A program made the position numbers and the translations under genes. Shown here in pieces: positions 23,628 to 42,086 of a DNA stretch of 64,000 nt; position 1 is the stretch's first letter, and each line of letters opens with the position of its first letter. The DNA is taken from positions 5,389-69,388 of the forward strand of contig DATKSQ010000106.1 in NCBI GenBank assembly GCA_035531615.1, given 5' to 3'. Origin of the DNA: Candidatus Binataceae bacterium. Its GTDB lineage: Bacteria > Desulfobacterota > Binatia > Binatales > Binataceae. The notes beneath the pieces were generated by a model. The model ran no database searches and had not been told where the DNA came from. It worked only from the letters and a program-made list of their open reading frames with translations.

Positions 23628-24632
23628 TCACGCCATATAATGGCGAACCATCCGCCACGAATCCCTGAGGTTCTTGCCGAACTCGAGCGCGACCGTGCCC
23701 TCGAAGCCCGAATGCATCTTGCAGTCGCGGCATCGGAAATCTTGCCGGGTCCGGTAGAATTCCCAATCGGTTTTGGCGTGCATTTCCTCGAACGTCTGGT
23801 AGTGGCCGTTGGTGATCAGGTAGCACGGTCCCTTCCAGCCGCGCGGATTGCGCGTGACGGTGGTCCACGGACTGCACGTCAGGTCATGCTCGCCGACCAG
23901 AAAATCGAGATAGATGGGAGTGTTGATGATGTTGTAATCGTGCGCCAGGTCGCGCACGCGGCGGAACTTCGCGACGCTCTCGTCGCCAGTCAGGTAAAGC
24001 TCATCATTGGTGAGCACCTGGTAATGATAGCCGGGGCTCAGCAGCATTCCGTCCACCCCAAGGCCGCCCAGATATTTCACCATCTCTTCGAGTTCCTCGG
24101 CCGTGGTCTCGCGGAACACCGTGGTGTTGGTCTGCACCCGATAGCCCTTGTCCTTGAGCATCTTGACCATCTTGATGACGGTGTCGAAGTGGCCTTCGCG
24201 ATCGACCACGCGATCGTTGGTCGCGCGCATACCGTCCAGATGCAGGTTGAAGCTTAAGTAGGGCGAGGGTGCGACCTGCTTGACGAAGCGTTCGAGCAGG
24301 ATCGCGTTGGTGCAGATCATCACGTGGCGCTTTTGATCTTCGATCAGACCCTTGGTCAGCGGCACGATATGCTTGTACATCAACGGCTCGCCGCCGCAGA
24401 TCGAAACCAGCGGAGCGCCGCACTCTTCGGCCGCCGCGAGCGAATCCTCCAGCGGCATCATGTCGCGAATCGAATCCTTGTACTCGACGATCCGGCCGCA
24501 TCCGACACACGCCAGATTGCACGCGTGCAGCGGCTCGAGCATCAGGACCAGCGGAAAATATTTCTCGCCACTGCGCTTCTTGGCGCGCATATAGCGGCCA
24601 AGATCGATCATCTGCTTGAGCGGCATCCGCAT
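23628..24632 (-). CDS. hpnH: adenosylhopane synthase HpnH (radical SAM)
   Basis: LMLEPLHACNLACVGCGRI (CxxxCxxC), and the conserved C-terminal CSPWTTVTRNPRGWKGPCYL...CRDCKMHSGFE resembles HpnH as I remember it. Confidence 0.85.
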   Translation of the reverse strand: MRMPLKQMIDLGRYMRAKKRSGEKYFPLVLMLEPLHACNLACVGCGRIVEYKDSIRDMMPLEDSLAAAEECGAPLVSICGGEPLMYKHIVPLTKGLIEDQKRHVMICTNAILLERFVKQVAPSPYLSFNLHLDGMRATNDRVVDREGHFDTVIKMVKMLKDKGYRVQTNTTVFRETTAEELEEMVKYLGGLGVDGMLLSPGYHYQVLTNDELYLTGDESVAKFRRVRDLAHDYNIINTPIYLDFLVGEHDLTCSPWTTVTRNPRGWKGPCYLITNGHYQTFEEMHAKTDWEFYRTRQDFRCRDCKMHSGFEGTVALEFGKNLRDSWRMVRHYMA

Positions 24633-24680: not shown

Positions 24681-25340
24681 TCAGGCGACGGCCTTGCCGC
24701 CGCCCGCGTCGGACTTGACATCTTCGCCAAACAACCAGCCCGCGACCATAGCCACCGCGCTCTCGGGTTCGAGCGGGCGGTTGTGCATGAACAGATGCTC
24801 GATCAGGATGCCGTTGAGCGCCGAGAGCAAAAATCCCGCCGCCGACTCGGCCGTGAAGCGCCGCGAGCACAGGTTGCGCTCCTGCCCGCGCGCGATCAGC
24901 TCGACCAGCATCGCTCGATAGCCCGAATAGAGCTTCAGCACCTGGTCGCTGAGCCCCTCCGCGAAATGCTGATCGTGCAGCATCTGCGCGATGAAGAACC
25001 GCACCGAGCTCGCATTGTCGCGCACGAACAACAGGTAGAACTCGACCAGCTTCTGAATCTGCGCGCGCTCGTCCAGCGCTCCCGCCTCTTCGGCGAAATC
25101 GATGAAGTACGGCTCGAGCAGCCGGTTCAGCACCGCGACGAACAGCTCTTCCTTGGTCTTGAAATGCCAGAAGATCAGCGCCTTGCTGACCCGTGCTTCG
25201 CGCGCAACCTCGGACATCGAGGTCTCGTGAAACCCGCGGCTCGCGAACAGATGCATCGCCGACTTCAGGATCTCGTCACGCGAATCCTGCGATCCACTGC
25301 GGACTTCGGTCGCACCCACTCTAACTTGGGATAAGCTCAT
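24681..25340 (-). CDS. TetR/AcrR family transcriptional regulator
   Basis: N-terminal HTH: RDEILKSAMHLFASRGFHETSMSEVAREARVSKALIFWHFKTKEELF. Confidence 0.85.
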   Translation of the reverse strand: MSLSQVRVGATEVRSGSQDSRDEILKSAMHLFASRGFHETSMSEVAREARVSKALIFWHFKTKEELFVAVLNRLLEPYFIDFAEEAGALDERAQIQKLVEFYLLFVRDNASSVRFFIAQMLHDQHFAEGLSDQVLKLYSGYRAMLVELIARGQERNLCSRRFTAESAAGFLLSALNGILIEHLFMHNRPLEPESAVAMVAGWLFGEDVKSDAGGGKAVA

Positions 25341-25639: not shown

Positions 25640-26662
25640 TCAGGCGGTAATTTTCACTTCCACGCCCCCGTCTGAAGCGGATTTTCGCGCGGCGGACATA
25701 AGCGCGATCGCGTTGCGCGCCTCGGCCAAGTTGACGCGCGCAGCCCCCGAGCCGGGTCCAGCGGCGATTGCACGCTCGAATTCTTCGGCCATCGCGGCGA
25801 ACCAGGCGCGATGGTACGAGTCGTCGGGCAGATCTGCGACCGAGGTCTCGTCGATGCGCCCGAGGCGATCGGTGAAGCTTACGCGATCGCCCTCGATTTC
25901 GAGGCTTCCCAAATCCCCGCGGATCATCGCCGAGGTCCGCCGCGCCGGCCCGCGCCACGACAGGTGCGACGTCGCGGAACGTCCCGAGGAAAAGCTCACG
26001 CGCAAATCGGCAAGGTCTTCGCCAGCGCCGGGCTCCCGGCTCGACAACGCCGCTGAAATCCCCACGGGGGCGTCACCGCCGAAGAGCCATTGCATCAGGT
26101 AGAAGACGTGCCATCCGTGATCGATCAGGATACCGCCACCGGAAGCGGATGCCGCGCGCCACGCTCCGCCCGCGCCGCGCGCGCCGGCGGGTTCGGTACG
26201 GATCCGATCGAGCGAGACGAATTGGACCGCGCCCAACCGGCCTTCATCGATCATGCGCCGCGCGAGCGCGTAGGCGGGCGCGTATTTCCAGTTATGCACG
26301 CACATCAGCACGCGACGCCGGTCGGCGGCGAGCTTGCGGAGCGCGTCGAACTCCGCGAGCGTCAGGCACATCGGCTTTTCGACGAGCACGTGCGCGTCCG
26401 CTTCGAGCGCCACGCGCGCCGCGGCGCCATGCAGCGCGGGCGGGCTGGCGATATCGACAAAATCAAGCGCCTCTCCGTCGAGCATCAGCTCGAGGTCATC
26501 GTACACGCGGACATTCTTGATCAGCCGCATCGCCTCATGGCGGCGCGCGGAAACCGGCTCATGCACGACGCTGATATTGATCGCCCCGCGCGCGAGCCAT
26601 CCCGGCAGATGGGCCAGTGCGGCGACTTCGCCGAAGCCGGAGATTGCGCCGCGCAGTTTCAC
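25640..26662 (-). CDS. Gfo/Idh/MocA family oxidoreductase
   Basis: The track ORF 25640..27010 overlaps the real GlsB gene, so I trimmed it to the GTG at 26662 (VKLRGAISGFGEVAALAHLPGW...). The EKP motif (HVLVEKPMCL) is typical of the family. Confidence 0.75.
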   Translation of the reverse strand: MKLRGAISGFGEVAALAHLPGWLARGAINISVVHEPVSARRHEAMRLIKNVRVYDDLELMLDGEALDFVDIASPPALHGAAARVALEADAHVLVEKPMCLTLAEFDALRKLAADRRRVLMCVHNWKYAPAYALARRMIDEGRLGAVQFVSLDRIRTEPAGARGAGGAWRAASASGGGILIDHGWHVFYLMQWLFGGDAPVGISAALSSREPGAGEDLADLRVSFSSGRSATSHLSWRGPARRTSAMIRGDLGSLEIEGDRVSFTDRLGRIDETSVADLPDDSYHRAWFAAMAEEFERAIAAGPGSGAARVNLAEARNAIALMSAARKSASDGGVEVKITA

Positions 26663-28046: not shown

Positions 28047-28898
28047 TTAAACGAACGTGGCGGCGACTCGCTCGAGCATTCGCGCCATCGTCGCGGGCGT
28101 GAAATCCGACAGGCCGACCACGTAGCGCGAGACTCCAGCTTCGGCGAAGCGCGTCAGTTCCGCTTGCACCGCGGCGCGATCGCCCTGGATATAGCCCATG
28201 ACGGTGATGTCCATCCGGGCGAAATCGCGGCCGGTGGCGGCGCATTCGCGCTTGAGCTCGGCGAGCTTGCCGGCCATGAACTCGGGCGTCACGCGGATCG
28301 GGCACCATCCGTCGCCCCACTTGGCGACGCGCTTGAGCGCGTTTTTATCGAGGCTCCCAATCACGACCGGGGGACCGTTTTTCCGCGCCGGCTTGGGCGC
28401 GCACTTGACCGGAGGAAACTTGACGTATTGGCCATCGAACGATGCTTCATCGTGGGTCCACAGCTCGCGCATCGCGGCTACGTACTCGCGCGTCTGGGTC
28501 CATCTTTTGGGAAAATCGACCGCGAAGAGATCGCATTCCTCGCGCAGCCATCCGGCGCCGATCCCGAAGATCAGCCTGCCATCGGACATCGCGTCGAGCG
28601 TCGCGAGCTGGTTGGCCAGCGCGATCGGGTTATGCTCGGGCACCAGGCAGATGCCGGTCGCGAGCTTGAGATTTTTGGTCGTCGCGGCGGCCATGCTGAG
28701 CGCGACGATCTGATCCGCCATCGAGAAGTATATCGGCGGAATCTCGTTGCCGCCGGGAAATTTTGTCACCGGATTGGCGGGAACCGCTGGATGCTCGGGA
28801 ATCCAGAGCGATTCGTAGCCGAGCGATTCCGCGATTCGCGCGAACTCGCCGGGGTTTCCGTTGCTTCCGCTAAATGGAGTGAGTAATCCGATTTTCAT
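28047..28898 (-). CDS. LLM-class (luciferase-like) F420-dependent oxidoreductase
   Basis: FARIAESLGYESLWIPEHP...IGIGAGWLREE...PPVVIGS has the bacterial luciferase-like TIM-barrel pattern. Confidence 0.75.
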   Translation of the reverse strand: MKIGLLTPFSGSNGNPGEFARIAESLGYESLWIPEHPAVPANPVTKFPGGNEIPPIYFSMADQIVALSMAAATTKNLKLATGICLVPEHNPIALANQLATLDAMSDGRLIFGIGAGWLREECDLFAVDFPKRWTQTREYVAAMRELWTHDEASFDGQYVKFPPVKCAPKPARKNGPPVVIGSLDKNALKRVAKWGDGWCPIRVTPEFMAGKLAELKRECAATGRDFARMDITVMGYIQGDRAAVQAELTRFAEAGVSRYVVGLSDFTPATMARMLERVAATFV

Positions 28899-28955: not shown

Positions 28956-29390
28956 TTATGGCAGCGACTCGAAAGGGTTGTGAGCGGCGATTTCCAAGGG
29001 CGCGAAGTGCCGCAGATTCCGGGTCAATACGATTAAATCATGTGCGGCCGCCGTGGCGGCAATTCCCAAGTCGGCGAATCCGGGGCTCCGGCCCTTGCTG
29101 CGCGCGCGATCGGAGAGTTTGCCCGCGATGCCAGCTGCCGGTACGTCGAAGGGCAGAACGCGCCTGCTGTAGAGGTGCAGCAGGGTTTCCAGCCATTGCT
29201 CCAAACGAAACGCTTTGCGCAGGGCGCCCTCGCGGCGGATCTTCGCTATTCCGCCCTCGATCTCGGCTACGGTGATCGCCGATAGAAAGAGACGTTCCGA
29301 GTTACGATCCATCCATGCGGCCAGCTCGGTTGAGACCATCTCTCTGGATGGCGCGCCGGACGAGATCACGTCGGTGTCCACCAGATACAT
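28956..29390 (-). CDS. vapC: type II toxin, PIN-domain ribonuclease VapC/FitB-like
   Basis: MYLVDTDVIS...SAITVAEIE...ADLGIAATA...LTRNLRHF shows the PIN acidic residues in canonical order. It begins 3 nt after the antitoxin gene. Confidence 0.85.
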   Translation of the reverse strand: MYLVDTDVISSGAPSREMVSTELAAWMDRNSERLFLSAITVAEIEGGIAKIRREGALRKAFRLEQWLETLLHLYSRRVLPFDVPAAGIAGKLSDRARSKGRSPGFADLGIAATAAAHDLIVLTRNLRHFAPLEIAAHNPFESLP

Positions 29391-29393
29391 TGT

Positions 29394-29636
29394 TCACCAA
29401 CGCGGATCGTGCGGCGGTTTGCGGTTACGCTTGGGCAAATCGCCCTTCTCCAGCGGCGCCGCCATCAACAGGCGTCCGAACGAGGGGACAGAAGATAATC
29501 GTTCCCAATCCTCGTAACTGATGAGAACGGCTTCGGAGCGGCCATGCCGGGTAATGACGCATGGTTTGCCGCGCGCCGCGTCATCCACAACCGCGGACAG
29601 AGTAGCCTTCGCGTCTTTCAATTGAAGCTTTCTCAT
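29394..29636 (-). CDS. type II antitoxin, Phd/YefM family (VapB partner)
   Basis: Only the last 80 codons of track ORF 29394..30311 look real. ATG at 29636. MRKLQLKDAKATLSAVVDDAARGKPCVITRHGRSEAVLISYEDWERL. Confidence 0.8.
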   Translation of the reverse strand: MRKLQLKDAKATLSAVVDDAARGKPCVITRHGRSEAVLISYEDWERLSSVPSFGRLLMAAPLEKGDLPKRNRKPPHDPRW

Positions 29637-29809: not shown

Positions 29810-30286
29810 CTAGTCCCAGCCGAAGAAATCCTTCGCGTACACAAAGCGCCCGACGCCCGCGGCGCGCGCCGCTTGCTCGTCGATCTCCTGATCGCCCACC
29901 ATCGTCGAGGACTTCAGGTCCACGCCGTAGAGTTCCGCCAGCTCCGTGATCATCCCGCCCTTGGGCTTGCGGCATCGGCAGTTGTCCTCGTCGAGGTGCG
30001 GGCAGATTTCCCACGCGGTGATGATGTCGCCAAGCGCATCGTCGAGGGCGCGCAGTCCCGCCTCGACCTGTTCGCGCGTGAACCATCCACGGCGGATTCC
30101 GGCCTGATTGGTGACGATCAAGACCAGGTGATCGTGGATCGGGCGCAGCTTGTCGGCGACCCCGGGCAGCAACTCGATAATCAGGTTGCCGCCGGCGTCG
30201 CGCGGGATCGAGCGGGTCTCGTCGATCCTGACCAGCGTTCCGGCAAGATCGAAGAACAACGCGGCATTGCCGTTGGATTCGGACAT
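29810..30286 (-). CDS. HAD-IIIA family phosphatase (GmhB / histidinol-phosphatase-like)
   Basis: FFDLAGTLV (motif I, with Ala where the second Asp usually sits), VTNQAGI (motif II), CRCRKPKGGM (Zn-loop/Lys motif) and MVGDQEID (motif IV). Confidence 0.7.
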   Translation of the reverse strand: MSESNGNAALFFDLAGTLVRIDETRSIPRDAGGNLIIELLPGVADKLRPIHDHLVLIVTNQAGIRRGWFTREQVEAGLRALDDALGDIITAWEICPHLDEDNCRCRKPKGGMITELAELYGVDLKSSTMVGDQEIDEQAARAAGVGRFVYAKDFFGWD

Positions 30287-30295
30287 CGCGGAACC

Positions 30296-31654
30296 TCAGG
30301 CGGCGCGCCAATCGAGGTGATCGCGGACCTGGGCGAAGACCTCGTCCAGAACCGCGACGCCGGCCTCGGCCTGCGCTTCGGTGATAACCAGCGGCGGGTT
30401 GATCCGGATACGTGGAAAGTAGCTCATCGTGACCAGACCGCGCTTGAGCGACTCGGTGAATATATACTCAGTCACTTTCCTGCCCAGCAGCTCCTTGGAT
30501 TTCAGATCGCGCACCAGCTCGATTCCGATCAGCAGCCCCTTGCCGCGCACGTCGCCGATAAATTCGTACTTCTCCTGAAGCTGGCGCAGCCGCGAGAGCA
30601 TCGCGGCGCCGACCTTGCGGGAGTTCTCGACCAGCTTATCGTCGCGGATCGTCTTGATCGTCTCCGACACCGCGACCGCCGCGAGCGGGTTCCCGCCGTA
30701 GCTCGAGGACGACGCGCTGGGCTTGCCGAACGGCTCGGCGTGGCCGATCTCATCGCTCAGCAGGACCCCGGAGACCGGATAGCCGGAACCCATCCCCTTG
30801 CCGACCGTGATCACGTCGGGGAGGGTGCCGCTATGCTCGACGCCCCACATTTTTCCGGTGCGGCCGAAGCCGGTGATCATTTCGTCGGCGATCAGAAGCG
30901 CGCCCAAATCCTTGGCCATCGACTTGATCGCGGGCAGCCAATCGTCGGGTGGTATCACGTTGCCGGCGGTGCCTTGCATCGGCTCGACCAGGACCGCGGC
31001 GACTTCTCCCGCCGACGAGTTCTTGATCTGCTGGCGCGCGAAGTCCACGCACGCAAGCCCGCACGCGGGATACTCGAGCTTCAGCGGGCATCGGTAGCAA
31101 TCGGCGTAGGGCACCTGGTAGCGGCCGCCGGGCAGCGGACCGTAGCCCTGTTTCGATTCATCACCGACGAGACCCAGCACGCCCATCGTCTTGCCATGAA
31201 AGCCGCCCCAGAAGGCGACGACCTCGTGTTTTTTGGTTACAGAGCGGGCCAGGCGCAACGCGGCCTCGACCGCCTCGGCGCCGCCGCTGTATAGATGCGC
31301 GCGCTTGAGATTGCCGGGAGCGGTTTCGCCGAGCAGCCGGAACGCTTCGGCGCGCTCTTTGGTCGCGAACGTGCCGACCGTCAGGCGCGCGGCCTGCTTC
31401 GAGAGCGCCTGCACCATCCGGGGATTGGCGTGGCCCAAGCTCGCGACGCCAACCCCGGCGAAGAAATCGACATAGGTGTTGCCGTCGGCGTCGGTCAGAG
31501 TCGCGCCCTCGCCGTGGTCGAAGGCGACGCGGGCCAACAGCGAGATACGCTGGCGGCCCGGTGCGACGTAGCGCTGTTCGTCGTTGAAGATCTCGGTTGA
31601 TTTGGGTCCAGGAACCGCGGTGCGGATCGAGGGTAGTTTGCCGTTGGATGCCAT
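30296..31654 (-). CDS. class-III (aspartate aminotransferase fold) PLP-dependent aminotransferase
   Basis: 452 aa. DADGNTYVDFFAGVGVASLGHANP, FWGGFHGKT, LIADEMITGFGRTGKMW and VGKGMGSGYP (Schiff-base Lys region) are GABA/ornithine-aminotransferase-like. Confidence 0.85.
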   Translation of the reverse strand: MASNGKLPSIRTAVPGPKSTEIFNDEQRYVAPGRQRISLLARVAFDHGEGATLTDADGNTYVDFFAGVGVASLGHANPRMVQALSKQAARLTVGTFATKERAEAFRLLGETAPGNLKRAHLYSGGAEAVEAALRLARSVTKKHEVVAFWGGFHGKTMGVLGLVGDESKQGYGPLPGGRYQVPYADCYRCPLKLEYPACGLACVDFARQQIKNSSAGEVAAVLVEPMQGTAGNVIPPDDWLPAIKSMAKDLGALLIADEMITGFGRTGKMWGVEHSGTLPDVITVGKGMGSGYPVSGVLLSDEIGHAEPFGKPSASSSSYGGNPLAAVAVSETIKTIRDDKLVENSRKVGAAMLSRLRQLQEKYEFIGDVRGKGLLIGIELVRDLKSKELLGRKVTEYIFTESLKRGLVTMSYFPRIRINPPLVITEAQAEAGVAVLDEVFAQVRDHLDWRAA

Positions 31655-31715
31655 CAGGGCGTGTCTTTCAAATCCTTATGCTTTCAAATTATGGCTGATC
31701 CTGGATGCGCCAGCA

Positions 31716-32555
31716 TCACGCGCTATGAATGCCGGGTCGCGCACGCGACAGGATCGCGATTGCGCGCCGCGCGATCGCGCGCGCGGCGGGTCCGCGCACC
31801 CGGCTATAACTTGGCCAGTCGTTAAAGTCGATAATCGCAAATCGTTCGCCACTCAAGACCGCGTCGCCTCCCCATGCCTCCAAACCGAGCGCCGCGGCGG
31901 CGGTTTGCGCGGCCGCAGCGAGTTCGCGCACGGCGGCTTCCGGCACCTCGCCCGTTTCGGGCAGCACCGCAAAATATGAACCTCCGCTGACGCCGTAAAA
32001 CTTTATCACCGCTCCGACGAATTCCTGCTGCACATAGGCGAAGCGGATTCCGCGCCGGGCGAAGCTTCCCAGCCGCGCCTGGAGGTCGGCGCGGCCCTCC
32101 GCGCGCTGTACGTCATCGGGGCCGAGCGCGTGCAGATCGCCGCGCTTGATAAACACCGGCGCGCCGAGATCGACTCCCGCAAGCGCCCGCGCGTCGAGCG
32201 GCACGGCGGTTGCGACCAGCGCTCCGGCGGGAGTCGGCACGCCGGCGCGCGCGAGTCCGGGGGCCAGCAGATCGCGGTAGCAATTCCGGATCGCCAGCGC
32301 CGAGTTGATCGCGATCGCGCCCGCGCGTTCGGCCTCCGCAAGGCGGCGCAGCGCATGTTCGCCCTGGCACATCGCCAGGATTATGTCGGCGCGCGTCTCG
32401 GCGCCGCCGGCGAACGCGCGCGCGTCGAGCGATCCGATCTCGACCCCGGCGCGTGAAAGCTCGGCCAGCACGGAGTCAAGGATCGCCGCGTCGGCTTCGA
32501 CCTTGCCCGGCGAGAATTCGGGTTCGCGGTAAATTCCAAGGGCGCGATGACTCAT
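31716..32555 (-). CDS. ATP-grasp domain protein
   Basis: VFIKRGDLHA...AYVQQEFVGAVIKFYGV...WGGDAVLSGERFAIIDFNDWPS fits the ATP-grasp central and C-terminal lobes. ATGA overlap with the upstream gene. Confidence 0.65.
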   Translation of the reverse strand: MSHRALGIYREPEFSPGKVEADAAILDSVLAELSRAGVEIGSLDARAFAGGAETRADIILAMCQGEHALRRLAEAERAGAIAINSALAIRNCYRDLLAPGLARAGVPTPAGALVATAVPLDARALAGVDLGAPVFIKRGDLHALGPDDVQRAEGRADLQARLGSFARRGIRFAYVQQEFVGAVIKFYGVSGGSYFAVLPETGEVPEAAVRELAAAAQTAAAALGLEAWGGDAVLSGERFAIIDFNDWPSYSRVRGPAARAIARRAIAILSRARPGIHSA

Positions 32556-33253
32556 CGGCGGGTCTCCACCTCGCGGCGCGCCGCTTCGAGATCGGCGGCT
32601 TCGTCGATATCGATCGCGCCGGTGACTTCGATCGCTCGCAGCCGAAACCCCTGCGCCAGGATCATCGCCAGTAACGCGCGCATCGCGCCGAGCTTTCGCG
32701 CACGCGCATCGTCGCCCAGCGCGAAGATTGCGGTCGGGAGCCAGTACACTCCCGCGGTCACGATCGGCGCGGGCCGCGCGCCAAGTTCCTGGATTAACCC
32801 CGCCGGGGTGACGTGCGTGAAAAGCGGCTGCTTATCACCACGCCACTTCACCACCGCAAGCGCGCCATCACAGGCTCCCGCCTCCGACGCGGCGCGGGCC
32901 TTCAGGGCGAATCGCTCGAACTCCTCGGGCGGCAGGATCGCATCCACCGTCGCAAGCAGAAAATGGCCCGGGCGCAAAGACTCGCCAAGCGTCAGCAGAG
33001 TCTCCATCGAGGATGCCGTATCGCGCACGATAATCGTGAGCTCGGGCGGCATCTCGAATGCGCCGACCAGCGCCGCCGTCTCGCGATTGATCACCGCCAG
33101 CACCTGATCCGCACCCGCCGCGAGCATCGCGCGCACTTGGCGCACAAGCATCGGCACGCCGCCGACCTCGACCAGCGGCTTGGGAATCGAATCGCCGGTG
33201 GTGGCGCGCAGGCGCTCACCGCGCCCGGCCGCAACTATCGCGCCTTGAAACAC
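32552..33253 (-). CDS. nucleotidyltransferase (NTP_transferase / GlmU-MobA-like fold)
   Basis: GAIVAAGRGERLR...PKPLVEVGGVPML is the canonical G-x-G-x-R-L...K-P-L sugar/alcohol-phosphate nucleotidylyltransferase signature. Confidence 0.75.
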   Translation of the reverse strand: MFQGAIVAAGRGERLRATTGDSIPKPLVEVGGVPMLVRQVRAMLAAGADQVLAVINRETAALVGAFEMPPELTIIVRDTASSMETLLTLGESLRPGHFLLATVDAILPPEEFERFALKARAASEAGACDGALAVVKWRGDKQPLFTHVTPAGLIQELGARPAPIVTAGVYWLPTAIFALGDDARARKLGAMRALLAMILAQGFRLRAIEVTGAIDIDEAADLEAARREVETRR

Positions 33254-33255
33254 GC

Positions 33256-34014
33256 TTAGATCTCCAAGGTCGCGAGTTCTTCCAGGGCGGCGATTATGTG
33301 GTCGGCGGATATGGATTCGCCGCCGCGCGCATCACCGCTCGAGTTTCCATTCGCCGCCGCCGGATCGGGCCGATACCACACCGTCTTGAGCCCGAGCGCG
33401 CGCGCTGGCGCGCAGTCTTTTTCGAGCGAGTCGCCGATCATCGCGGCGCTGGCCGGCGCGGTGCCAAGCGACTCGAGCGCGGTCTGGAACATCCGCGGGT
33501 CAGGCTTCTCGAATCCGAGCCGCCCCGAATCAACCACCGTGTCGATGAACGGCGACATCGCCGCCTCGGCAAGCACCCGCTTAAGATTGCCGTACCAGTT
33601 GGACACCACTGCGATTCGGTAGCGCGGCTTGAGCGTGGCCAGCACCGCGCGGCTCCGCTTCATCCCACGCGTGGATTCCTCGACGAACAACGCGGTGATC
33701 CGCTCGGTCAGGCGATGACGCGCGCGGGAATCAAGCGCGCCGAGCATCGCGCGAACCGGGTCGGCGCCACGGGCGGTAAGAAACTCGACCTGTTGGCCGA
33801 CCAGCATCCGCACCAAATCGATGAACCCAAAGCGTTCGACGACCCGGCCCGCATGGACGGTTGCGACACTGGCGTGCTGATAGGCGGGGTCCAGAGCCTC
33901 GCGCGCGATCGGAATTTCGGCTTTGCGATATTGCGCGGCAAAGCGGTCGAGCCAATAGTCGGGCCCGTCCAGCGTGGCGCCAAAATCAAACAGCAGCGTG
34001 GTAACTATCGCCAT
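33256..34014 (-). CDS. HAD-superfamily hydrolase
   Basis: LLFDFGATL (motif I variant), VVSNWYG (motif II), GFEKPDPRMF (Lys motif) and MIGDSLEKD (motif IV). Confidence 0.75.
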   Translation of the reverse strand: MAIVTTLLFDFGATLDGPDYWLDRFAAQYRKAEIPIAREALDPAYQHASVATVHAGRVVERFGFIDLVRMLVGQQVEFLTARGADPVRAMLGALDSRARHRLTERITALFVEESTRGMKRSRAVLATLKPRYRIAVVSNWYGNLKRVLAEAAMSPFIDTVVDSGRLGFEKPDPRMFQTALESLGTAPASAAMIGDSLEKDCAPARALGLKTVWYRPDPAAANGNSSGDARGGESISADHIIAALEELATLEI

Positions 34015-34348
34015 GAGCCACCCGAGTTTACCAGCGCCCGGATGCCGTCACTAGACTGGATCGGACGCGACCGTGCACGGAAGCGAGATTTAATGGATTT
34101 GACATTAGGGTGCACACGCCATAAACCGTACGCGACCAATGTTCTTTGGAAGCGGAGCATCGCCGACGCAGGCGGTGCTCGACTGTGGTTCATAGCACTG
34201 CATGGTCGGGGAGATGGCATCTTGGCTGAAATAGCAGGGCTGATACGTGAGAGAAACATCCTGAAGAAATGCTTCTAGCCCGACGGTTGGAAGCATGTTA
34301 GCTTGACCAGTCGGACAGTTCTCGCGGGAAACCGGGTTTTATAACGCC

Positions 34349-35527
34349 TTGGCTACAGAAACGGCTCTCATCGCCGCTCCCTCACGCGCCGCCAACGAGA
34401 TCTTTGGCCGCCCTCTGTTGGAGCGGCTGATTCTGTCCTGCGAACGCGCGGGTATCAGGCGCTTTCTAATCGAGGCGCCCAAAGCCCGGCGTAACGAAAT
34501 CGAAACCTCGCTCGGACGTTACCGAAGTCATCCCGCAATCACCCTGATTGATAGCCTGGAACCCGCGACCCTCGAGCACGAGCAGCTAAGTCCCGAAACA
34601 GCCTGCATCGCGCTGTCCGGAAACCTGGTGTTCTTCAAGTCGCAGCTCGAAGCGGTGCTGGCCGAAGCCGCACAAAAACCCGGCATGATCGTCCGCCTGA
34701 CCACGGCGGATTCCGATCATGGTGGCGAAATCGCAGCCGGGCCGTGCGCGGAACTCTTGCGGCGCGGCGGAATCAATGGCGAGCAACTTCCCAAGCCGCT
34801 CGGGGATCTGCCGTTCGCGCTCAACGGACGCCCCGAGGATCGCGAAGAGGCGGAACTGCGTCTGGCGCGCTCGCTGCGCGCCGAGACGGCGGCCAAGGAC
34901 GCGCCGATGGCGCGCTGGGTGGATCGCAAGCTCTCGTGGCGGCTCAGCATGCGGCTGGCGCGCACGCGGATCACGCCCAATCAAATCACGATCGCCAACA
35001 CACTAGTCGGGTTCGCGGCTGGATGGATGTTCGCGATACCGAGCTACTGGTGGCGCCTGGCGGCGGCGGTGCTGTTCCTGATCTCGATCACGATTGACGG
35101 CGTGGACGGCGAATTGGCGCGGCTCACGATGAGCGAGACCGATTTCGGCGGCAAGCTCGATGTGTTGACGGACAACCTGGTGCACGTCGCGGTGTTCATT
35201 GGAATCTTCATCGGATGCTACCGGGCCAGCGGCGGTGTCGCGTACCTATGGCTCACAGTTTTAGTCTTGATCGGCTTTGGATTGTGCTCGTATGCTACCT
35301 ACCGTGCTTTTTCTCTTCGCGGCACAGTCGCGGAAAAATGGCTCGAAACGCTGGACCGTTGGAGCGGCCGCGACTTCGCCTATCTGCTGGTCATACTGGC
35401 CTTGCTTAACCGGCTCGAATGGTTCGCATGGGGGACAGCGTTCGGCACTTATGTCTTCGGGTTCGGACTGATGTGGCTTACGGCTCACAAGCTGCCGAGC
35501 CACGCGGCGGCGATCGAACGGAAGTAA
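34349..35527 (+). CDS. fusion protein: degenerate nucleotidyltransferase-like N-domain plus CDP-alcohol phosphatidyltransferase membrane domain
   Basis: TTG start. The C-terminal half has the exact DGx2ARx8Gx3Dx3D signature (DGELARLTMSETDFGGKLDVLTD) and about 6 TM helices. The N-terminal ~190 aa resembles an NTP-transferase fold but lacks GxGxR (LIAAPSRAANEIFGRPLLERLI). Confidence 0.75.
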   Translation: MATETALIAAPSRAANEIFGRPLLERLILSCERAGIRRFLIEAPKARRNEIETSLGRYRSHPAITLIDSLEPATLEHEQLSPETACIALSGNLVFFKSQLEAVLAEAAQKPGMIVRLTTADSDHGGEIAAGPCAELLRRGGINGEQLPKPLGDLPFALNGRPEDREEAELRLARSLRAETAAKDAPMARWVDRKLSWRLSMRLARTRITPNQITIANTLVGFAAGWMFAIPSYWWRLAAAVLFLISITIDGVDGELARLTMSETDFGGKLDVLTDNLVHVAVFIGIFIGCYRASGGVAYLWLTVLVLIGFGLCSYATYRAFSLRGTVAEKWLETLDRWSGRDFAYLLVILALLNRLEWFAWGTAFGTYVFGFGLMWLTAHKLPSHAAAIERK

Positions 35528-35587
35528 CCATCTTCGGGACAACGATCGGAAACCATAGGAAAGGACGGCGTCCACGCCGAAGGAAGC

Positions 35588-36916
35588 ATGAACAAGAAAC
35601 CCAGAATCCTGCTGGTACAACCGACCACCGTCCATCTCGACGGAACTCCGCACAAAACCCGCTGGCGGCTGATCATGGGGCTGATGGTTCCGCTGATGGC
35701 GGGGCTGACGCCCGATGATTACGACGTCACCCTGTGCGACGAACGGCTTGAGGACATCAACTTCGACGGCGGATGGGATCTGGTCGGGATGACCACCACC
35801 ATCGGAGCGTCGCTGCGCGCCTATCAGCTCGGCGACGAATTCCGCAAGCGCGGCATTCCGGTGGTGTTCGGCGGCTTTCACGCCACCCTCCAGACCGACG
35901 AGGCGCTCCATCACGCCGACGCGGTGGTGCAGGGCGAGGCCGACCTGGTATGGCCCGAGCTCTTGCAGGATTGGCGCGACGGCAAGCTCAAGCAGATTTA
36001 CAAATCGACCAAGCTGCACGATCTTAAGAATCTGCCGCGCCCGCGCCACGAACTCCTGAAGCTCAACCGCTATCTGTTCAAGGCCGTCCCGGTGCAGGCC
36101 AGCCGGGGATGCCCGTATCGATGCTCGTTCTGCGAGATTCCGGTGTTCTACGACGGCAGCTACCGGACCCGCCCGATCGAGGACATCGTCGAGGAGATCA
36201 AGCAAACCATCAAGATCACCGGCTTCCGGCGCTTCCAGTTTATCGACGACCAAATCACCGGCAAGCACAAGTTCGCGCGCGAGTTATTCAAGGCGCTCGA
36301 GCCGCTCAATATCCGCTTCTCGTGCCTGTGGACGATCAACTCGAATCATGACGACGACCTGCTCGACCTGGCGGCCAAGGCCGGCATCTTCCACGTCAAT
36401 ATCGGCGTCGAGTCGATCAGCCAGGAATCGCTGTTGTCGATGAACAAGATTCAGAACCACGCCAATCAGTACAAGAAGCTGCTGGGCAAGCTTGAGAAGT
36501 ACGGAATCTACTACTCACTGAATTTCATGTTCGGACTCGAGGAAGACAAACCCGGCATCTTCGACGAGACGCTCAAGTTCCTGCACGAGGTCCGCGCCCC
36601 CGAGGCGTTCTTCAACACCGTCACGCCGCGGCGCGGGACGCCGATGCGCACGCAGCTCGAAAACGAGGGCCGCGTGATCATCCCCGACGCGGACCTGTAC
36701 ACCAACAACTTCCGCTGCATGTTCGTGCCCAAGAACATGTCGCCCCAGGAAGTTGAAGAGGGAGTCTGGCGCTGCACCAAGGAGTTCTATTCGATCAAGT
36801 CGATGTTCAAACGGCTATTGCTCCCGCCCAACAAGTTCACCTGGCAGGGCCTGACTGAGAATATGCTCTTCTGGTACGGCGCCAAGCGCCAAATCGACCC
36901 GGTCGATTACTATTAG
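35588..36916 (+). CDS. B12-binding radical SAM protein
   Basis: N-terminal B12 Rossmann part (ILLVQP...DLVGMTTTIGASLRAYQLGDEFRKRGIPVVFGGFH) and cluster motif SRGCPYRCSFCE (CxxxCxxC). Confidence 0.85.
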   Translation: MNKKPRILLVQPTTVHLDGTPHKTRWRLIMGLMVPLMAGLTPDDYDVTLCDERLEDINFDGGWDLVGMTTTIGASLRAYQLGDEFRKRGIPVVFGGFHATLQTDEALHHADAVVQGEADLVWPELLQDWRDGKLKQIYKSTKLHDLKNLPRPRHELLKLNRYLFKAVPVQASRGCPYRCSFCEIPVFYDGSYRTRPIEDIVEEIKQTIKITGFRRFQFIDDQITGKHKFARELFKALEPLNIRFSCLWTINSNHDDDLLDLAAKAGIFHVNIGVESISQESLLSMNKIQNHANQYKKLLGKLEKYGIYYSLNFMFGLEEDKPGIFDETLKFLHEVRAPEAFFNTVTPRRGTPMRTQLENEGRVIIPDADLYTNNFRCMFVPKNMSPQEVEEGVWRCTKEFYSIKSMFKRLLLPPNKFTWQGLTENMLFWYGAKRQIDPVDYY

Positions 36917-36943: not shown

Positions 36944-36976
36944 GGGGCGGCCCAGCAAAGGCCGCCCCTTTTTTTC
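36944..36976 (+). terminator. rho-independent terminator
   Basis: ggggcggcc-cagcaaa-ggccgcccc is a perfect 9-bp GC stem, followed by ttttttt. It lies 28 nt after the radical SAM stop codon. Confidence 0.85.
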
Positions 36977-36981
36977 TGATT

Positions 36982-39562: not shown

Positions 39563-39838
39563 TCAATCCGCTCGGGTATAGGTCGCATCCGCGGCTTCGG
39601 GCGGTGCACCACCCCAGATCAGAACATCAGGGCAGAGGTCGGCGCCGTTGGGCCAGACCACGGTCCCGCCTTCGACCCGTGTTGCTGCGAATACCGCCCG
39701 GTCTCTTTTGATGAGATCGAAGACCGGACCGACGAGAAGATGGGACACATCGCGTTCGATGACAGAGCCATCGGTCAGCGTCAATCTCAGTTTGAAGTCT
39801 TCCAGCACTTTGACTTCACGGACACGCAATAGGGCCAT
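39563..39838 (-). CDS. DUF2442 domain protein
   Basis: 91 aa. VREVKVLEDFKLRLTLTDGSVIERDVS...GGTVVWPNGADLCPDVL is the classic DUF2442 pattern. It is paired with DUF4160 upstream. Confidence 0.75.
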   Translation of the reverse strand: MALLRVREVKVLEDFKLRLTLTDGSVIERDVSHLLVGPVFDLIKRDRAVFAATRVEGGTVVWPNGADLCPDVLIWGGAPPEAADATYTRAD

Positions 39839-39849
39839 ATTCTTTCACC

Positions 39850-40110
39850 TCAATCGAGGGCTTCGATCTCGTTAAGCGCTTCTCCGTTGCGGGCGCGGCG
39901 CCAGTCTTCGCGAAGCTCGGTGCGATGGAGCGCAGCCCATTCAAGCACCAGCGCGAGCGCGCGCCGCGGCAGTGAACCGCGGAATACCGACAGAGTGTCA
40001 ATTTCGATCAAGGCCTCGAACTCGCCATATATCGCATGGAAATGCGCCGGCTCGTGGTCGCTGTAAAACATCCGGATCGCAATTCCGAAGAACCGGCTCA
40101 ATTCTGGCAT
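39850..40110 (-). CDS. DUF4160 domain protein
   Basis: 86 aa. MPELSRFFGIAIRMFYSDHEPAHFHAIYGEFEALIEIDT is the classic DUF4160 N-terminus (H-x-P-x-H-F-H). Confidence 0.8.
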   Translation of the reverse strand: MPELSRFFGIAIRMFYSDHEPAHFHAIYGEFEALIEIDTLSVFRGSLPRRALALVLEWAALHRTELREDWRRARNGEALNEIEALD

Positions 40111-40180
40111 CGCCGAATCACTCGTTTATCGAGTCCTGCACAAGATAGTGACGCCGGCCCGCTCCGGCGCGCCACCTTCT

Positions 40181-40286
40181 GTCATTCCCGCGCGCGTGTC
40201 CGGCGCGCGCGAGGAATCCCGGTTTGCAGCCGCGCGGCGGACCAAAAGACCGGGATTCTTCGCGCGGCAGCCACGCGCGAGAATGA
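40181..40286. repeat. REP/MITE-like element, family B (two inverted arms forming a long hairpin)
   Basis: gtcattcccgcgcgcgtgtccggcgcgcgcgaggaatcccggt ... accgggattcttcgcgcggcagccacgcgcgagaatgat. The arms are reverse complements of the same ~40-nt unit. Confidence 0.8.
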
Positions 40287-40434
40287 TATGCCAAGGAATC
40301 GGGCAAGAGCGGAAGTGTCACTATGATATACAGGGCTCAATAGGCTGGGCCATTCTTCGTCGAAGCTTACGCACGAGCGCGAGATCTTGGCAAGCCTCAG
40401 AACGGAGCGATACTTCACGGTCCCATCCGTCGAG

Positions 40435-41487
40435 TTAGCTGATCCCCGAGGGTATTACGGAGCGGAAAAATGCTACCGCGCCTTCGACCGTCCGCTCATA
40501 CGGATGATTTCGTTTTGGGGCCGTCAAACTCATGTAGGCGGCGTACCGCCAGTCATCGCCCTCTCGGCGGAATAACTTGTAGCGGATGCCGTCGGAGACT
40601 ACAAAGCGGTCGCAGGACGGGAAGGACCGCGCGTAGCCTTTCGCTTGCTCCGGAGCATAGCGCATGCCGTCGAACAAACGCTTGGATTCGATGATCATGA
40701 CGGGCTTGCTGCCCTTCTTGTATGGAGTGTCGAACAGAACAACATCCATGTTGCCCCACTCGATTTTTACCCTCTGCTCTGCCCAGCCAAGAGACATCAG
40801 TAGGGGCACGATCAGAAAGGTCCGGATCTCGTGCTCCCCAACTTCGGCTCCATGGTCGCCATAATACTTTGCCATGCGCCGGAGGCGCCAAATGGTCTTC
40901 GCGATGAGTTCAGCGCGCTGTCCAGGCAGACCGTCAACAATCAGAGACTCTATTACCTCGTCAACCGTAATAGGCTCAGATTTGGCGGGGATCGGTTCCG
41001 AGGCGAGATCTCTACCGCTTGCCCAGATGCGTCTGATTTCGGTGAGTGCCTGTTCGTTGTAAACTCTCTTCAGGGTTCCTCGAGTCAGACCCGAAACTAA
41101 GGTCGTAGCATCAGGGACTTTCCAATGTACTTCTCGGCAATGCTGCAGATCCCATCCCTCCACGTCTTCGAACACTTCTTGATGGACGTAGTCGGACCTC
41201 ACCTCGCCGATAGCAACAATTTCCCACTGGTCGCTGCGCGGGCGCTTGAGGGCGACCAGATCGCCTACGCTGATTTTCTCGGCGAATGGTTCCAGGAACG
41301 AACGGTAGGCTCCGCTCTCGCTCTTATTATAGGCATCTTTGTTCGTAAAGTAGTTTCCCAAGGATCCAGGACCGACGAGAATGACTCCGAACCTCAAGAA
41401 TACATCTGCATAGTCGCGGCTGCCGTCTCCTGCCGCCACCTGCCAGATGTTAATATGCGAATCGGCGGAGATAATCGGCTCTTGCAT
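40435..41487 (-). CDS. PD-(D/E)xK nuclease (type I restriction R-subunit N-terminal, HSDR_N-like) with an uncharacterised N-terminal beta-rich domain; chimeric 5-prime end
   Basis: C-terminal half: EHEIRTFLIVPLLMSLGWAEQRVKIEWGNMDVVLFDTPYKKGSKPVMIIESKRL...EQAKGYARSF...VVSDGIRYKLF, giving D ... E-x-K, then Q..Y, then the (T/S)DG layout of HSDR_N. The first 12 codons (MQEPIISADSHI) duplicate the amidohydrolase start. The gene is AT-richer than the host genes. Confidence 0.7.
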   Translation of the reverse strand: MQEPIISADSHINIWQVAAGDGSRDYADVFLRFGVILVGPGSLGNYFTNKDAYNKSESGAYRSFLEPFAEKISVGDLVALKRPRSDQWEIVAIGEVRSDYVHQEVFEDVEGWDLQHCREVHWKVPDATTLVSGLTRGTLKRVYNEQALTEIRRIWASGRDLASEPIPAKSEPITVDEVIESLIVDGLPGQRAELIAKTIWRLRRMAKYYGDHGAEVGEHEIRTFLIVPLLMSLGWAEQRVKIEWGNMDVVLFDTPYKKGSKPVMIIESKRLFDGMRYAPEQAKGYARSFPSCDRFVVSDGIRYKLFRREGDDWRYAAYMSLTAPKRNHPYERTVEGAVAFFRSVIPSGIS

Positions 41488-41580
41488 GAATGGTTGCTCG
41501 ACTGTCTCAACGCGGCATCATATCATATGGACTCAGGCGCGGGCGGACTTCGCGTGCTTTGATCCGCTAATATCTCAAGC
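41453..41580. repeat. direct duplication, copy 2
   Basis: See copy 1 at 39427-39550. Here it supplies the leader and start codon of the nuclease ORF. Confidence 0.85.
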
Positions 41581-41606
41581 TGCGCTTTTTTGACAGAGAC
41601 CGGCGG

Positions 41607-42086
41607 TCATTGACCCGCCTGCTCGGCGGCAAATTTCTGGAGACTTGCGTAATTGTGGATGCCTCTCTTGCAGTTGCGCTTACCAAGAATCGTCCCGTCA
41701 ACGCGCTGCTGTAAGTATTCCACCAGCTCATTAAATCGCGTCTGCGGGATAAAGTACGTGGGCGCCTTGAATTCACGCTCGATGTTCTTGAAAATAACCG
41801 CGTAGCTGAATCGAGCGGGGTTACGGCCAAACCCCGCGTCAGCCTCGCGGAAACGGTGATAGCGTTCGACCAGATATTTGACGTAGTTGCGCTGCAAGAG
41901 GTCGCTTCCGATCGAACCGAGGGGATATTCGGATGGACGACTGGAGCGTCGGCCGCGAAGAACCTGGTTGATCGTGGTGGAACCGGTGTGCACGTCACCA
42001 TGAATCGTACTGCCCGCAATCGACGTGACATTTGCGCCGTTGGTGATCGTGCTCTTTTCCGCGCGGGTTGAAATGCCGTGTTTCAT
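41607..42086 (-). CDS. hypothetical protein (159 aa), partner of the DUF4062/TIR-like gene
   Basis: The ATG at 42086 overlaps the upstream stop (ATGA). It has a Gly/Ser/Thr-rich N-terminus (ITNGANVTSIAGSTIHGDVHTGSTTIN) and a C-terminal domain YVKYLVERYHRF...FSYAVIFKNIEREF...FNELVEYLQQRVDGT. I recognise no family. Confidence 0.6.
   Translation of the reverse strand: MKHGISTRAEKSTITNGANVTSIAGSTIHGDVHTGSTTINQVLRGRRSSRPSEYPLGSIGSDLLQRNYVKYLVERYHRFREADAGFGRNPARFSYAVIFKNIEREFKAPTYFIPQTRFNELVEYLQQRVDGTILGKRNCKRGIHNYASLQKFAAEQAGQ

Follow-up and report, generated by a model that had tools for sequence, protein, structure and literature searches.

Hopanoids rank among the major membrane lipids of bacteria, and the geological hopane record derives from them; the head-group chemistry known for them is of glycosidic, ether or amine type. 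A 2026 review covering radical S-adenosylmethionine (SAM) enzymes that modify lipids names just HpnH, HpnJ, HpnP and HpnR where hopanoids are concerned and reports that phosphoribohopane has never been observed (PMC13459092), and a 2025 preprint on hopanoid microsynteny makes no mention of cytidine diphosphate (CDP) or inositol. A CDP-alcohol route to a lipid head group has been proposed in Bacteroides vulgatus and Prevotella, where a putative inositol-lipid cluster contains genes for inositol-3-phosphate synthase (MIPS), a nucleoside triphosphate (NTP) transferase, a CDP-alcohol phosphatidyltransferase and a HAD protein, and an LPG-synthase homologue lies close by (Heaver et al. 2022, PMC9246714); the authors propose a Kennedy-type route through CDP-inositol, which is experimentally unconfirmed (PMC9246714). 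Two solved enzymes of Archaeoglobus fulgidus, IPCT-DIPPS (PDB 4MND) and AF2299 (PDB 4O6M), have a cytidylyltransferase-like N-domain, as does the transferase described below, and the CDP-alcohol donors that they use are soluble (PMC4634129). Here we describe seven genes at positions 29810–36916 of a 64,000-nucleotide stretch of Candidatus Binataceae bacterium DNA (GenBank assembly GCA_035531615.1, contig DATKSQ010000106.1, positions 5,389 to 69,388 of the forward strand), which we refer to as the window. We put at roughly even the chance that these genes form one conserved Binatia biosynthetic cassette for a phosphodiester-linked, inositol-derived polar head group on a membrane lipid tied to hopanoids. 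The Bacteroides and Prevotella cluster appears, by analogy of gene content, to be the closest described analogue, and full-text literature searches (Binatota or Binatia with hopanoid, lipid or radical SAM, and the enzyme combination) returned no description of the module. Neither the enzyme families nor the Kennedy-type logic is new; the novelty lies in how the genes are combined, in the B12 radical SAM enzyme as a constant partner and in the setting among hopanoid genes.

The genes are arranged in two divergent arms. The plus arm consists of a 392-residue CDP-alcohol phosphotransferase fusion with a TTG start (34349–35527, plus strand) and a 442-residue radical SAM enzyme (35588–36916, plus strand), and it is closed by an intrinsic terminator (36944–36978, plus strand) in which a hairpin at 36944–36968, with nine G-C pairs and a 7-nt loop, begins 28 nt past the radical SAM stop codon and is followed by a T7 run. 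The minus arm, all on the minus strand, begins with a HAD-IA family hydrolase (252 residues, 33256–34014) and continues with a nucleotidyltransferase (233 residues, 32552–33253), an ATP-grasp protein (279 residues, 31716–32555), a class-III pyridoxal phosphate (PLP) aminotransferase (452 residues, 30296–31654) and a HAD-IIIA hydrolase (158 residues, 29810–30286). A 334-bp intergenic promoter region (34015–34348) separates the arms, and a promoter scan of it found no consensus sigma-70 site. A preliminary description of this DNA had proposed these seven open reading frames (ORFs), the divergent spacer, gaps of 2 nt (33254–33255) and 9 nt (30287–30295), a 4-nt ATGA overlap (32552–32555) and a strong terminator after the plus arm, and all of these are present in the ORF list and the sequence; it had not mentioned that 61 nt separate the 279-residue ORF from the aminotransferase gene and 60 nt the transferase gene from the radical SAM gene. 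The domain classes that it gave agree with Pfam and NCBIfam scans, which recognize HAD-IIIA, Aminotran_3, NTP_transf_3, HAD-IA, CDP-OH_P_transf and Radical_SAM together with a weak B12-binding match, the 279-residue ORF and the N-domain of the transferase being the two that needed structure models. No protein of the cassette reaches an NCBIfam equivalog cut-off, all scores lying far below, so no curated known pathway claims the set, as had been suggested. Assignment to di-myo-inositol phosphate, phosphatidylinositol, phosphatidylglycerophosphate or CDP-glycerol pathways was rejected on NCBIfam and Pfam cut-offs for all seven proteins.

The cluster had been described as an orphan, and this does not hold. 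Using tblastn we found the cassette genes in 79 loci from one-genome-per-species contigs, and gene counts were made over 81 loci, these being the 79 together with the window's own contig (L001) and a locus (L002) that coincides with L038. About 60 species-level Binatia metagenome-assembled genomes (MAGs) have the seven-gene arrangement, and the full set keeps its order and orientation on every contig of sufficient length; the transferase gene is present in all 81 loci, the radical SAM gene in 78, and those for HAD-IA, the nucleotidyltransferase, the ATP-grasp protein, the aminotransferase and HAD-IIIA in 76, 73, 71, 67 and 65 respectively. In 62 loci the two arms diverge as in the window, across a spacer that is typically 170–400 bp long. 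All of the transferase's nearest relatives come from MAGs of the Binatia type, which bear the labels Binataceae, Binatus or 'uncultured delta proteobacterium', and a divergent Binatia lineage (L099) retains all seven genes with a transferase only 41% and a radical SAM enzyme 82% identical to those of the window; in this locus the transferase and radical SAM genes overlap, and a GFO gene lies directly beside the HAD-IIIA gene. The full set thus recurs across Binatia, L099 included, and the cluster is therefore no orphan; its core is also present in Syntrophales (see below), and the synteny in related genomes that the preliminary description proposed looking for is clearly present. Variants do occur, one locus (L066) keeping just the transferase and radical SAM genes and another (L062) lacking the aminotransferase and HAD-IIIA genes, and in three loci (L066, L073 and L111) the partners are different or absent. 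The arrangement is one of the most conserved in Binatia, and its recurrence in dozens of genomes at 45–81% transferase identity is far beyond what chance would produce.

The proteins have diverged to very different extents. Across 69 Binatia loci the radical SAM enzyme is 87–97% identical to that of the window (median 93%), while the transferase beside it is 45–81% identical (median 57%); the medians for the other proteins are 81% for the aminotransferase, 73% for the ATP-grasp protein, 69% for HAD-IIIA, 53% for the nucleotidyltransferase and 49% for HAD-IA. The radical SAM enzyme is also more conserved across Binatia than HpnH, for which the median is 83%.

The transferase consists of a six-transmembrane (TM) domain (residues about 200–392) fused to a cytidylyltransferase-like N-domain. 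Residues 208–357 match Pfam CDP-OH_P_transf (PF01066) with 56.7 bits against a gathering score of 22, and the superfamily signature D(x)2DG(x)2AR(x)8G(x)3D(x)3D is present, placing the protein in this superfamily; the shorter motif DGx2ARx8Gx3Dx3D noted previously is exact (D253-G-x2-A-R-x8-G-x3-D271-x3-D275) and invariant in 13 homologues. The first 200 residues have no Pfam match. An AlphaFold2 model of the whole protein, with a predicted local distance difference test (pLDDT) value of only 75, matches 4mnd (E 7e-10) and 4o6m (E 3e-9) in Foldseek, with alignments spanning about 400 columns and TM-scores of 0.55–0.66, and on this model the protein falls in the two-domain IPCT-DIPPS/AF2299 structural class. 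The N-domain alone matches KdsB, IspD and TarI, and it carries AAPSRAAN where active enzymes have AAGxGxR, the GxGxR(L) loop being missing in all 13 aligned homologues. As modeled, the N-domain is thus cytidylyltransferase-like by fold and predicted to be catalytically degenerate, which agrees with the 'degenerate nucleotidyltransferase-like domain' that had been recognized from the sequence.

The resemblance to IPCT-DIPPS is real in both fold and sequence, as the preliminary description had proposed. A family profile of the transferase scores 85 bits against AF2299, 45 against IPCT-DIPPS and about 30–31 against phosphatidylinositol-phosphate (PIP) synthase in the PDB, and the best curated NCBIfam matches are IPCT-DIPPS, archaetidylinositol-phosphate synthase and PIP synthase, all below their cut-offs. 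The specific assignments fail by wide distances: the IPCT-DIPPS model (NF041135) gives 75.7 bits, over the TM domain only, against a cut-off of 580, the archaetidylinositol-phosphate synthase model (NF040950) 63.4 bits against 180, and the PIP synthase model (NF045883) 55.6 bits against 170. A competent bifunctional IPCT-DIPPS was also rejected, the N-domain having no GxGxR(L) loop.

Relatives of the transferase outside the cassette point to a membrane product. When 1.84 billion representatives were searched exhaustively, 132 relatives were obtained at E<=1e-30, and five 50%-identity cluster representatives among these, which are 43–50% identical to the transferase over its full length, have an additional C-terminal LPG_synthase_TM domain. 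The best curated match of this fused flippase-like domain is HpnL, at 113–177 bits against a cut-off of 195.65, and four of the five fusion proteins pass the generic flippase-like model TIGR00374. The fusion argues that the transferase clade makes membrane lipids. A partnership with radical SAM proteins is also seen: a 718-residue protein (P0430) has a BlsE/MoaA-like radical SAM domain fused to the transferase, and a paralogue 47% identical to the transferase (L073, 8865–12239) is flanked by two BlsE/MoaA-like radical SAM genes, one of them 5 nt upstream. The transferase/radical SAM partnership is therefore recurrent, although the type of radical SAM protein differs from that in the cassette. 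In both of the contexts that we examined, flippase-fused transferase genes (L169, 4025–6382, and the P0362 contig) follow a Sulfotransfer_3 gene, and one of the two has genes for OEP, an ABC transporter and MlaC downstream; this hints at a sulfated lipid head group made by the flippase-fused sister clade.

A second, independent association is found in Syntrophales. Metagenome contigs of this group commonly encode a transferase homologue that is 36% identical to that of the window and has the same dead N-domain. A MIPS gene (439 bits) is divergent from a same-strand run that begins with the transferase and continues with genes for a B12 radical SAM enzyme, a nucleotidyltransferase, hpnH, squalene synthase, HpnM-like and HpnL-like proteins, TolC and MMPL, with spacings that range from a 4-nt overlap to gaps of about 125 nt. 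The B12 radical SAM enzyme is 39% identical to that of the window (E 2e-107), HpnH scores 482 bits, and the nucleotidyltransferase, two genes downstream of the transferase, is IPCT-like (103 bits) with an intact AAGRGRRF...PKPL motif. The transferase/radical SAM/nucleotidyltransferase core is thus linked, in an apparently operonic arrangement and in a second phylum, with both inositol phosphate and hopanoid genes. In one Syntrophales contig (L170, 3485–5302) we also observed, a few kb upstream of MIPS, a gene for a 605-residue KamA-family radical SAM protein that resembles glutamate and lysine 2,3-aminomutases and is much longer than the models (330–420 positions).

The radical SAM enzyme of the cassette matches Radical_SAM with 68 bits and has its CxxxCxxC motif at C175, C179 and C182. 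It appears by sequence to be of the class-B (B12-binding-domain) type, with a weak match to Pfam B12-binding (28.2 bits, below the gathering score of 32.1). Its top NCBIfam matches are BchE (101 bits, cut-off 481), HpnJ (77.2 bits, cut-off 577.6) and HpnR (49.9 bits, cut-off 650), all so far below the equivalog cut-offs that none of these identities is acceptable; the HpnP model is absent among its NCBIfam matches, and membership of PhpK was rejected on the cut-offs. Homologues in cultured organisms did not yield a function, as Geotalea uraniireducens, a Desulfobacca-type contig and a third genome share no conserved neighbours around the gene. A metagenome scan with the non-Binatia radical SAM clade returned mostly Binatia-type proteins or distant paralogues (35–44% identity) with neither transferase nor hpn neighbours. 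The sole hopanoid link among these radical SAM homologues is a metagenome contig (L088, 5298–11302) in which a homologue 57% identical to the radical SAM enzyme lies directly after hpnN (887 bits), hpnM (184 bits) and mlaA, with no transferase near it in this lineage.

The nucleotidyltransferase of the minus arm matches Pfam NTP_transf_3 (48.6 bits), and the AAGRGERLR...PKPL motif that had been reported is present. Its top NCBIfam matches are AglF (46 bits, over the full length), MurU (42 bits) and the IPCT-DIPPS N-domain (28 bits), and its PDB matches are MurU and GDP-mannose pyrophosphorylases. From these similarities it appears to be an intact enzyme of the sugar-1-phosphate or alcohol-phosphate type, and is the presumed maker of a nucleoside diphosphate (NDP)- or CDP-alcohol donor.

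The gene for the 279-residue protein is translationally coupled to that of the nucleotidyltransferase through the ATGA overlap. The protein has no significant Pfam or NCBIfam match, and we therefore relied on an AlphaFold2 model built on 20 homologues (pLDDT 76), for which Foldseek, at a probability of 1.00 and E 4e-12 to 1e-9, returned Ddl, RimK, ITPK1 and LysX. The family has invariant K137, K185, Q176-Q177-E178, D231, D243 and N245, and the fold, the conserved lysines and the acidic/Asn metal triad place the protein in the ATP-grasp superfamily; the fold matches and the invariant residues together predict a competent ATP-grasp enzyme. Its metal-binding segment, GGD...IIDFNDWPSY, aligns with GID...VIDINAFPGY of ITPK1, with a DxN metal motif as in ITPK1, whereas the aligned ligase DdlB has ExN; amide ligases generally carry ExN. 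Ins134_P3_kin is the only Pfam ATP-grasp family matched, in 11 of 20 family members and below threshold (best E 0.024), and assignment of the window's protein to the ITPK1-type kinases (PF05770) fails on the gathering score (11 bits, E 0.31, against 23), so that it serves as a lead only. The protein could be a kinase or a ligase, and looks at least as ITPK1-kinase-like as ligase-like.

The aminotransferase matches Pfam Aminotran_3 with 324 bits, and its best NCBIfam match reaches 370 bits against a cut-off of 552. The best PDB match is 7vno (264 bits), followed by GabT and racemases, and by these similarities the protein is a class-III PLP enzyme of the GabT/archaeal omega-transaminase type. 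It shares its class, III, with HpnO. The HAD-IIIA protein is of the GmhB/histidinol-phosphatase type, with a Zn-loop CPH...CxCRKP, and passes the TIGR01662 HAD-SF-IIIA model (64 bits, cut-off 44.6). The GmhB models give 87 and 66 bits, below their cut-offs (87 against 178), and HisB is also far below, so neither identity was accepted; motif I reads D-L-[GAV]-G-T in all 61 homologues, without Asp+2, and differs from the DxDGT of GmhB and histidinol phosphatases. The HAD-IA protein matches Pfam Hydrolase and HAD_2, with TIGR02253 and TIGR02252 below cut-off, and its motif I, D-F-G-[GSA]-T-L-D, whose conservation was checked in 65/66 homologues, likewise lacks Asp+2 in each one examined. It is possible that neither protein acts as an ordinary phosphomonoesterase.

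Downstream of the minus arm the window carries hopanoid genes on the same strand. The order along the minus strand is a PIN/PhdYeFM pair, an F420-dependent luciferase-like oxidoreductase (28047–28898, minus strand; TIGR03619, 247 bits against a cut-off of 167), a GFO/IDH/MocA sugar or cyclitol oxidoreductase (25640–26662, minus strand; Pfam GFO_IDH_MocA, with weak NCBIfam matches that include IolG at 60 bits), a TetR-family regulator (24681–25340, minus strand; Pfam TetR_N) between GFO and hpnH, and then the hopanoid cluster. This cluster begins with hpnH, encoding adenosyl-hopene transferase (23628–24632, minus strand; TIGR03470, 381 bits against 225), and reaches down to hpnR, encoding the C-3 methylase (4501–6060, minus strand; 874.5 bits against 650). 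It also includes genes for the HpnK deacetylase (11421–12269, minus strand; 261 bits, above cut-off), for HpnA, which passes its NCBIfam cut-off, and for a polyprenyl synthase, a Zn-dependent alcohol dehydrogenase, SHC and HpnC/D/E-type, CruF-like and HpnG-like proteins, together with dxr. In the window we found neither HpnI nor HpnJ and no aminotransferase beyond that of the cassette, in agreement with an earlier remark, and the absence of HpnI and HpnJ from these 64 kb leaves the usual substrate pathway of HpnK incomplete here.

This neighbourhood is shared by many other Binatia. We counted neighbours in the 54 Binatia loci with full 10-kb flanks, and in the same position relative to the cassette found hpnH in 28, tetR and GFO in 31 and the F420 oxidoreductase in 39; the F420 oxidoreductase is a possible accessory gene of the cassette. 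The cassette lies on the same strand as hpnH and directly upstream of it in the 28 loci that have hpnH in this position. A tblastn search for MIPS or hopanoid transport genes near the Binatia loci found none except hpnR in a single locus (L068), where it directly follows the radical SAM gene.

Several other features of the window were noted. The PIN-domain toxin (144 residues) and PhdYeFM antitoxin (80 residues) genes, at 28956–29636, are inserted between those for HAD-IIIA and the F420 oxidoreductase; the pair is specific to the window's contig and is missing from a syntenic Binatus locus (L002). Within the hopanoid cluster there is a CruF-like (Caroten_synth) membrane protein (13162–14052), and beside HpnK an ArsN1/phosphinothricin-type N-acetyltransferase (10872–11387; 141 bits against a cut-off of 210), neither of which is a standard hpn gene. 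A DUF2442/DUF4160 gene pair (39563–40110) lies beside a dip in G+C content at 40001–42000 (0.56, against about 0.64 for the window), an indication that a small segment was inserted downstream of the cassette.

We propose the following pathway. The ATP-grasp protein, with its ITPK1-like features, would phosphorylate a polyol or cyclitol, with a role as a ligase also possible, and the nucleotidyltransferase would convert the alcohol phosphate and CTP to a CDP-alcohol, as suggested by its intact motif and the dead N-domain of the transferase. The membrane transferase would then move the phospho-alcohol to an acceptor hydroxyl with release of CMP, a chemistry that is established for the family, although the substrates here are conjectural. 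The aminotransferase, perhaps with the GFO and F420 oxidoreductases, may place an amino group on the alcohol or on the finished head group, giving an amino-cyclitol or amino-polyol, the two non-canonical HAD proteins may remove or shuffle phosphate, and the B12-type radical SAM enzyme might methylate or rearrange the product or its lipid. The Kennedy-type logic follows from the overlap of the intact nucleotidyltransferase gene with the ATP-grasp gene and the dead N-domain of the transferase itself. The preliminary description had proposed a sequence of transfer, dephosphorylation, amination and ligation, for which we find no specific support. Its suggestion of a novel hopanoid or phospholipid head group has gained comparative support from the hopanoid neighbours, the flippase fusions and the Syntrophales run, although product and acceptor are still conjectural.

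The head-group alcohol is most likely inositol-derived, because the transferase belongs to the clade that it does, the Syntrophales run has MIPS and an IPCT-like nucleotidyltransferase, and the ATP-grasp protein gives a weak ITPK1 signal. The most likely product would be a membrane lipid with a functional link to hopanoids, whether a hopanoid polyol bearing a phospho-head-group or an inositol-type phospholipid made alongside hopanoids. We also entertain, as a tentative idea on the doubtful side, a new hopanoid class in which phospho-inositol or a phospho-aminocyclitol is joined by a phosphodiester to the extended side chain, modified by the radical SAM enzyme, and flipped and exported by HpnL- and HpnN-like proteins; such a compound would be a hopanoid analogue of phosphatidylinositol, and the cassette together with its Syntrophales counterpart would be its makers, which we regard as similarly doubtful.

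A number of observations weigh against a hopanoid-tied, inositol-derived head group. No MIPS gene occurs in the window, nor does one lie within 10 kb of a Binatia locus, the Binatia nucleotidyltransferase resembles generic sugar-1-phosphate nucleotidyltransferases, and both HAD proteins keep the nucleophilic Asp without the Asp+2 acid/base of canonical phosphatases, and these three points weaken the case for inositol. The ITPK1-like signals are all sub-threshold (E 0.024–0.3), and the Binatia and Syntrophales nucleotidyltransferases could not be accepted as orthologues, their similarity being at the motif level only. The closest solved relatives of the transferase, AF2299 and DIPPS, act on soluble substrates (PMC4634129). 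Most of the radical SAM homologues at 51–58% identity (Geotalea, Desulfobacca and others) are lone genes with neither hopanoid nor transferase neighbours, 23 of the 54 Binatia loci lack hpnH within 10 kb, and the adjacency to hopanoid genes within Binatia may reflect inherited synteny and not functional coupling. A phosphodiester-linked hopanoid was not found in the literature searched, and in Bacteroides flippase-like neighbours are likewise seen with inositol lipids that are not hopanoid-related.

Alternatively, a Kennedy-type route in the cassette could lead to an inositol-type glycerophospholipid: the phospho-alcohol of CDP-inositol, or of a CDP-aminocyclitol, would go to diacylglycerol, in the manner proposed for the Bacteroides vulgatus and Prevotella cluster, and the hopanoid neighbours would be simply co-organized membrane-lipid genes. 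The triad of nucleotidyltransferase, CDP-alcohol transferase and HAD protein occurs in the Bacteroides cluster with an LPG-synthase homologue nearby (PMC9246714), the transferase resembles PIP and archaetidylinositol-phosphate synthases, its relatives are fused to flippase-like domains, and MIPS is adjacent in Syntrophales. We nevertheless consider this explanation unlikely, as the Syntrophales core is in one run with hpnH, squalene synthase and HpnM-, HpnL- and HpnN-like genes, HpnL, a hopanoid-associated model, gives the highest score for the fusion domain, and the B12 radical SAM enzyme, aminotransferase and ATP-grasp protein have no role in the Bacteroides scheme. The last point applies also, as regards the radical SAM enzyme and aminotransferase, to a soluble polyol phosphodiester acting as a compatible solute (di-myo-inositol phosphate, diglycerol phosphate or glycerophosphoinositol), which would be made by a cytidylyltransferase, a DIPPS/AF2299-type transferase and a phosphatase in succession. 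Such solutes are known from hyperthermophiles and the Binatia MAGs come from soil and peat, the transferase has relatives fused to a lipid-flippase-like domain, and its homologues are found in hopanoid and Mla/MMPL lipid-transport contexts, all of which make a solute quite improbable even though AF2299 (85 bits) and IPCT-DIPPS, the closest solved homologues, process no lipids, a six-TM architecture is typical of soluble-acceptor enzymes (PMC4634129), and separate nucleotidyltransferase and HAD 'phosphatase' genes would suit a di-myo-inositol phosphate pathway.

It is very improbable, in our estimation, that the two arms are functionally separate. The aminotransferase would in that case be the missing HpnO, making aminobacteriohopanetriol, the ATP-grasp protein would be a ligase that N-acylates it with an amino acid, and the plus arm would encode an unrelated phospholipid synthase and a methylase. 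A class-III aminotransferase does lie beside a hopanoid cluster in a window with no other aminotransferase, N-acyl and amino-acyl aminotriols are known natural products, and the loci with just the transferase and radical SAM genes (L066) or without the aminotransferase and HAD-IIIA genes (L062) indicate that the arms can separate. Against this, the divergent layout is kept in 62 loci across 41–81% transferase identity, the nucleotidyltransferase of the minus arm complements the dead N-domain of the plus-arm transferase, the nearest characterized relatives of the aminotransferase are GabT-type and archaeal, and the weak signals of the ATP-grasp protein are kinase-like, not ligase-like.

The occurrence of a CDP-alcohol transferase and a B12 radical SAM enzyme in hopanoid clusters of two phyla points to a new route for decorating hopanoids or the lipids that accompany them, and to a fifth radical SAM function associated with hopanoids. 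Binatia are uncultured bacteria that abound in soil and peat. A phosphodiester head group might escape standard bacteriohopanepolyol work-ups, and such lipids could therefore be a missing biomarker pool. The cassette also links the unconfirmed inositol-lipid pathway of Bacteroides to wider bacterial Kennedy-type head-group pathways, and supplies concrete candidate genes for biochemistry.

Comparison with the known systems shows which parts of the cassette have precedents. IPCT-DIPPS and AF2299 share with the transferase its two domains and the DGx2ARx8Gx3Dx3D motif and are its best sequence and fold matches, and the logic of their pathway, from cytidylyltransferase to transferase to phosphatase, is similar. 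In the cassette, however, the N-domain is degenerate and a separate nucleotidyltransferase gene supplies the step, an ATP-grasp protein, a class-III aminotransferase, two HAD proteins and the constant B12 radical SAM enzyme are added, and the context is one of hopanoids and lipid transport in mesophilic bacteria instead of a thermophile solute pathway. The Bacteroides cluster, likened here by gene content, resembles the cassette in the triad of NTP transferase, CDP-alcohol transferase and HAD protein, all of which are found within it, in the proposed CDP-alcohol route to a lipid head group, and in an association with flippase-like proteins of the LPG-synthase family; it differs in that MIPS is adjacent there and in Syntrophales but not in Binatia, and in having no radical SAM, ATP-grasp, aminotransferase or hopanoid genes. 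Hopanoid tailoring genes, i.e. hpnI, hpnK and hpnJ, which lead from bacteriohopanetetrol glucosamine to the cyclitol ether, and hpnP and hpnR, which encode B12 radical SAM methylases, provide the precedent for modifying genes beside hpnH that include a B12-domain radical SAM enzyme, and the HpnL-like flippase-like domain is tied to relatives of the transferase. Unlike the HpnI/K/J route, the head group would be attached as a phosphodiester by a CDP-alcohol phosphotransferase and not by a glycosyltransferase, and the radical SAM enzyme scores far too low to be HpnJ or HpnR, a genuine HpnR being encoded elsewhere in the window. The eukaryotic Kennedy pathway, with choline or ethanolamine kinase, a cytidylyltransferase and a CDP-alcohol phosphotransferase, matches the three-step logic proposed here and the superfamily of the last enzyme, although the candidate kinase in the cassette is an ATP-grasp protein without the choline-kinase fold, and both the alcohol and its acceptor are putative.

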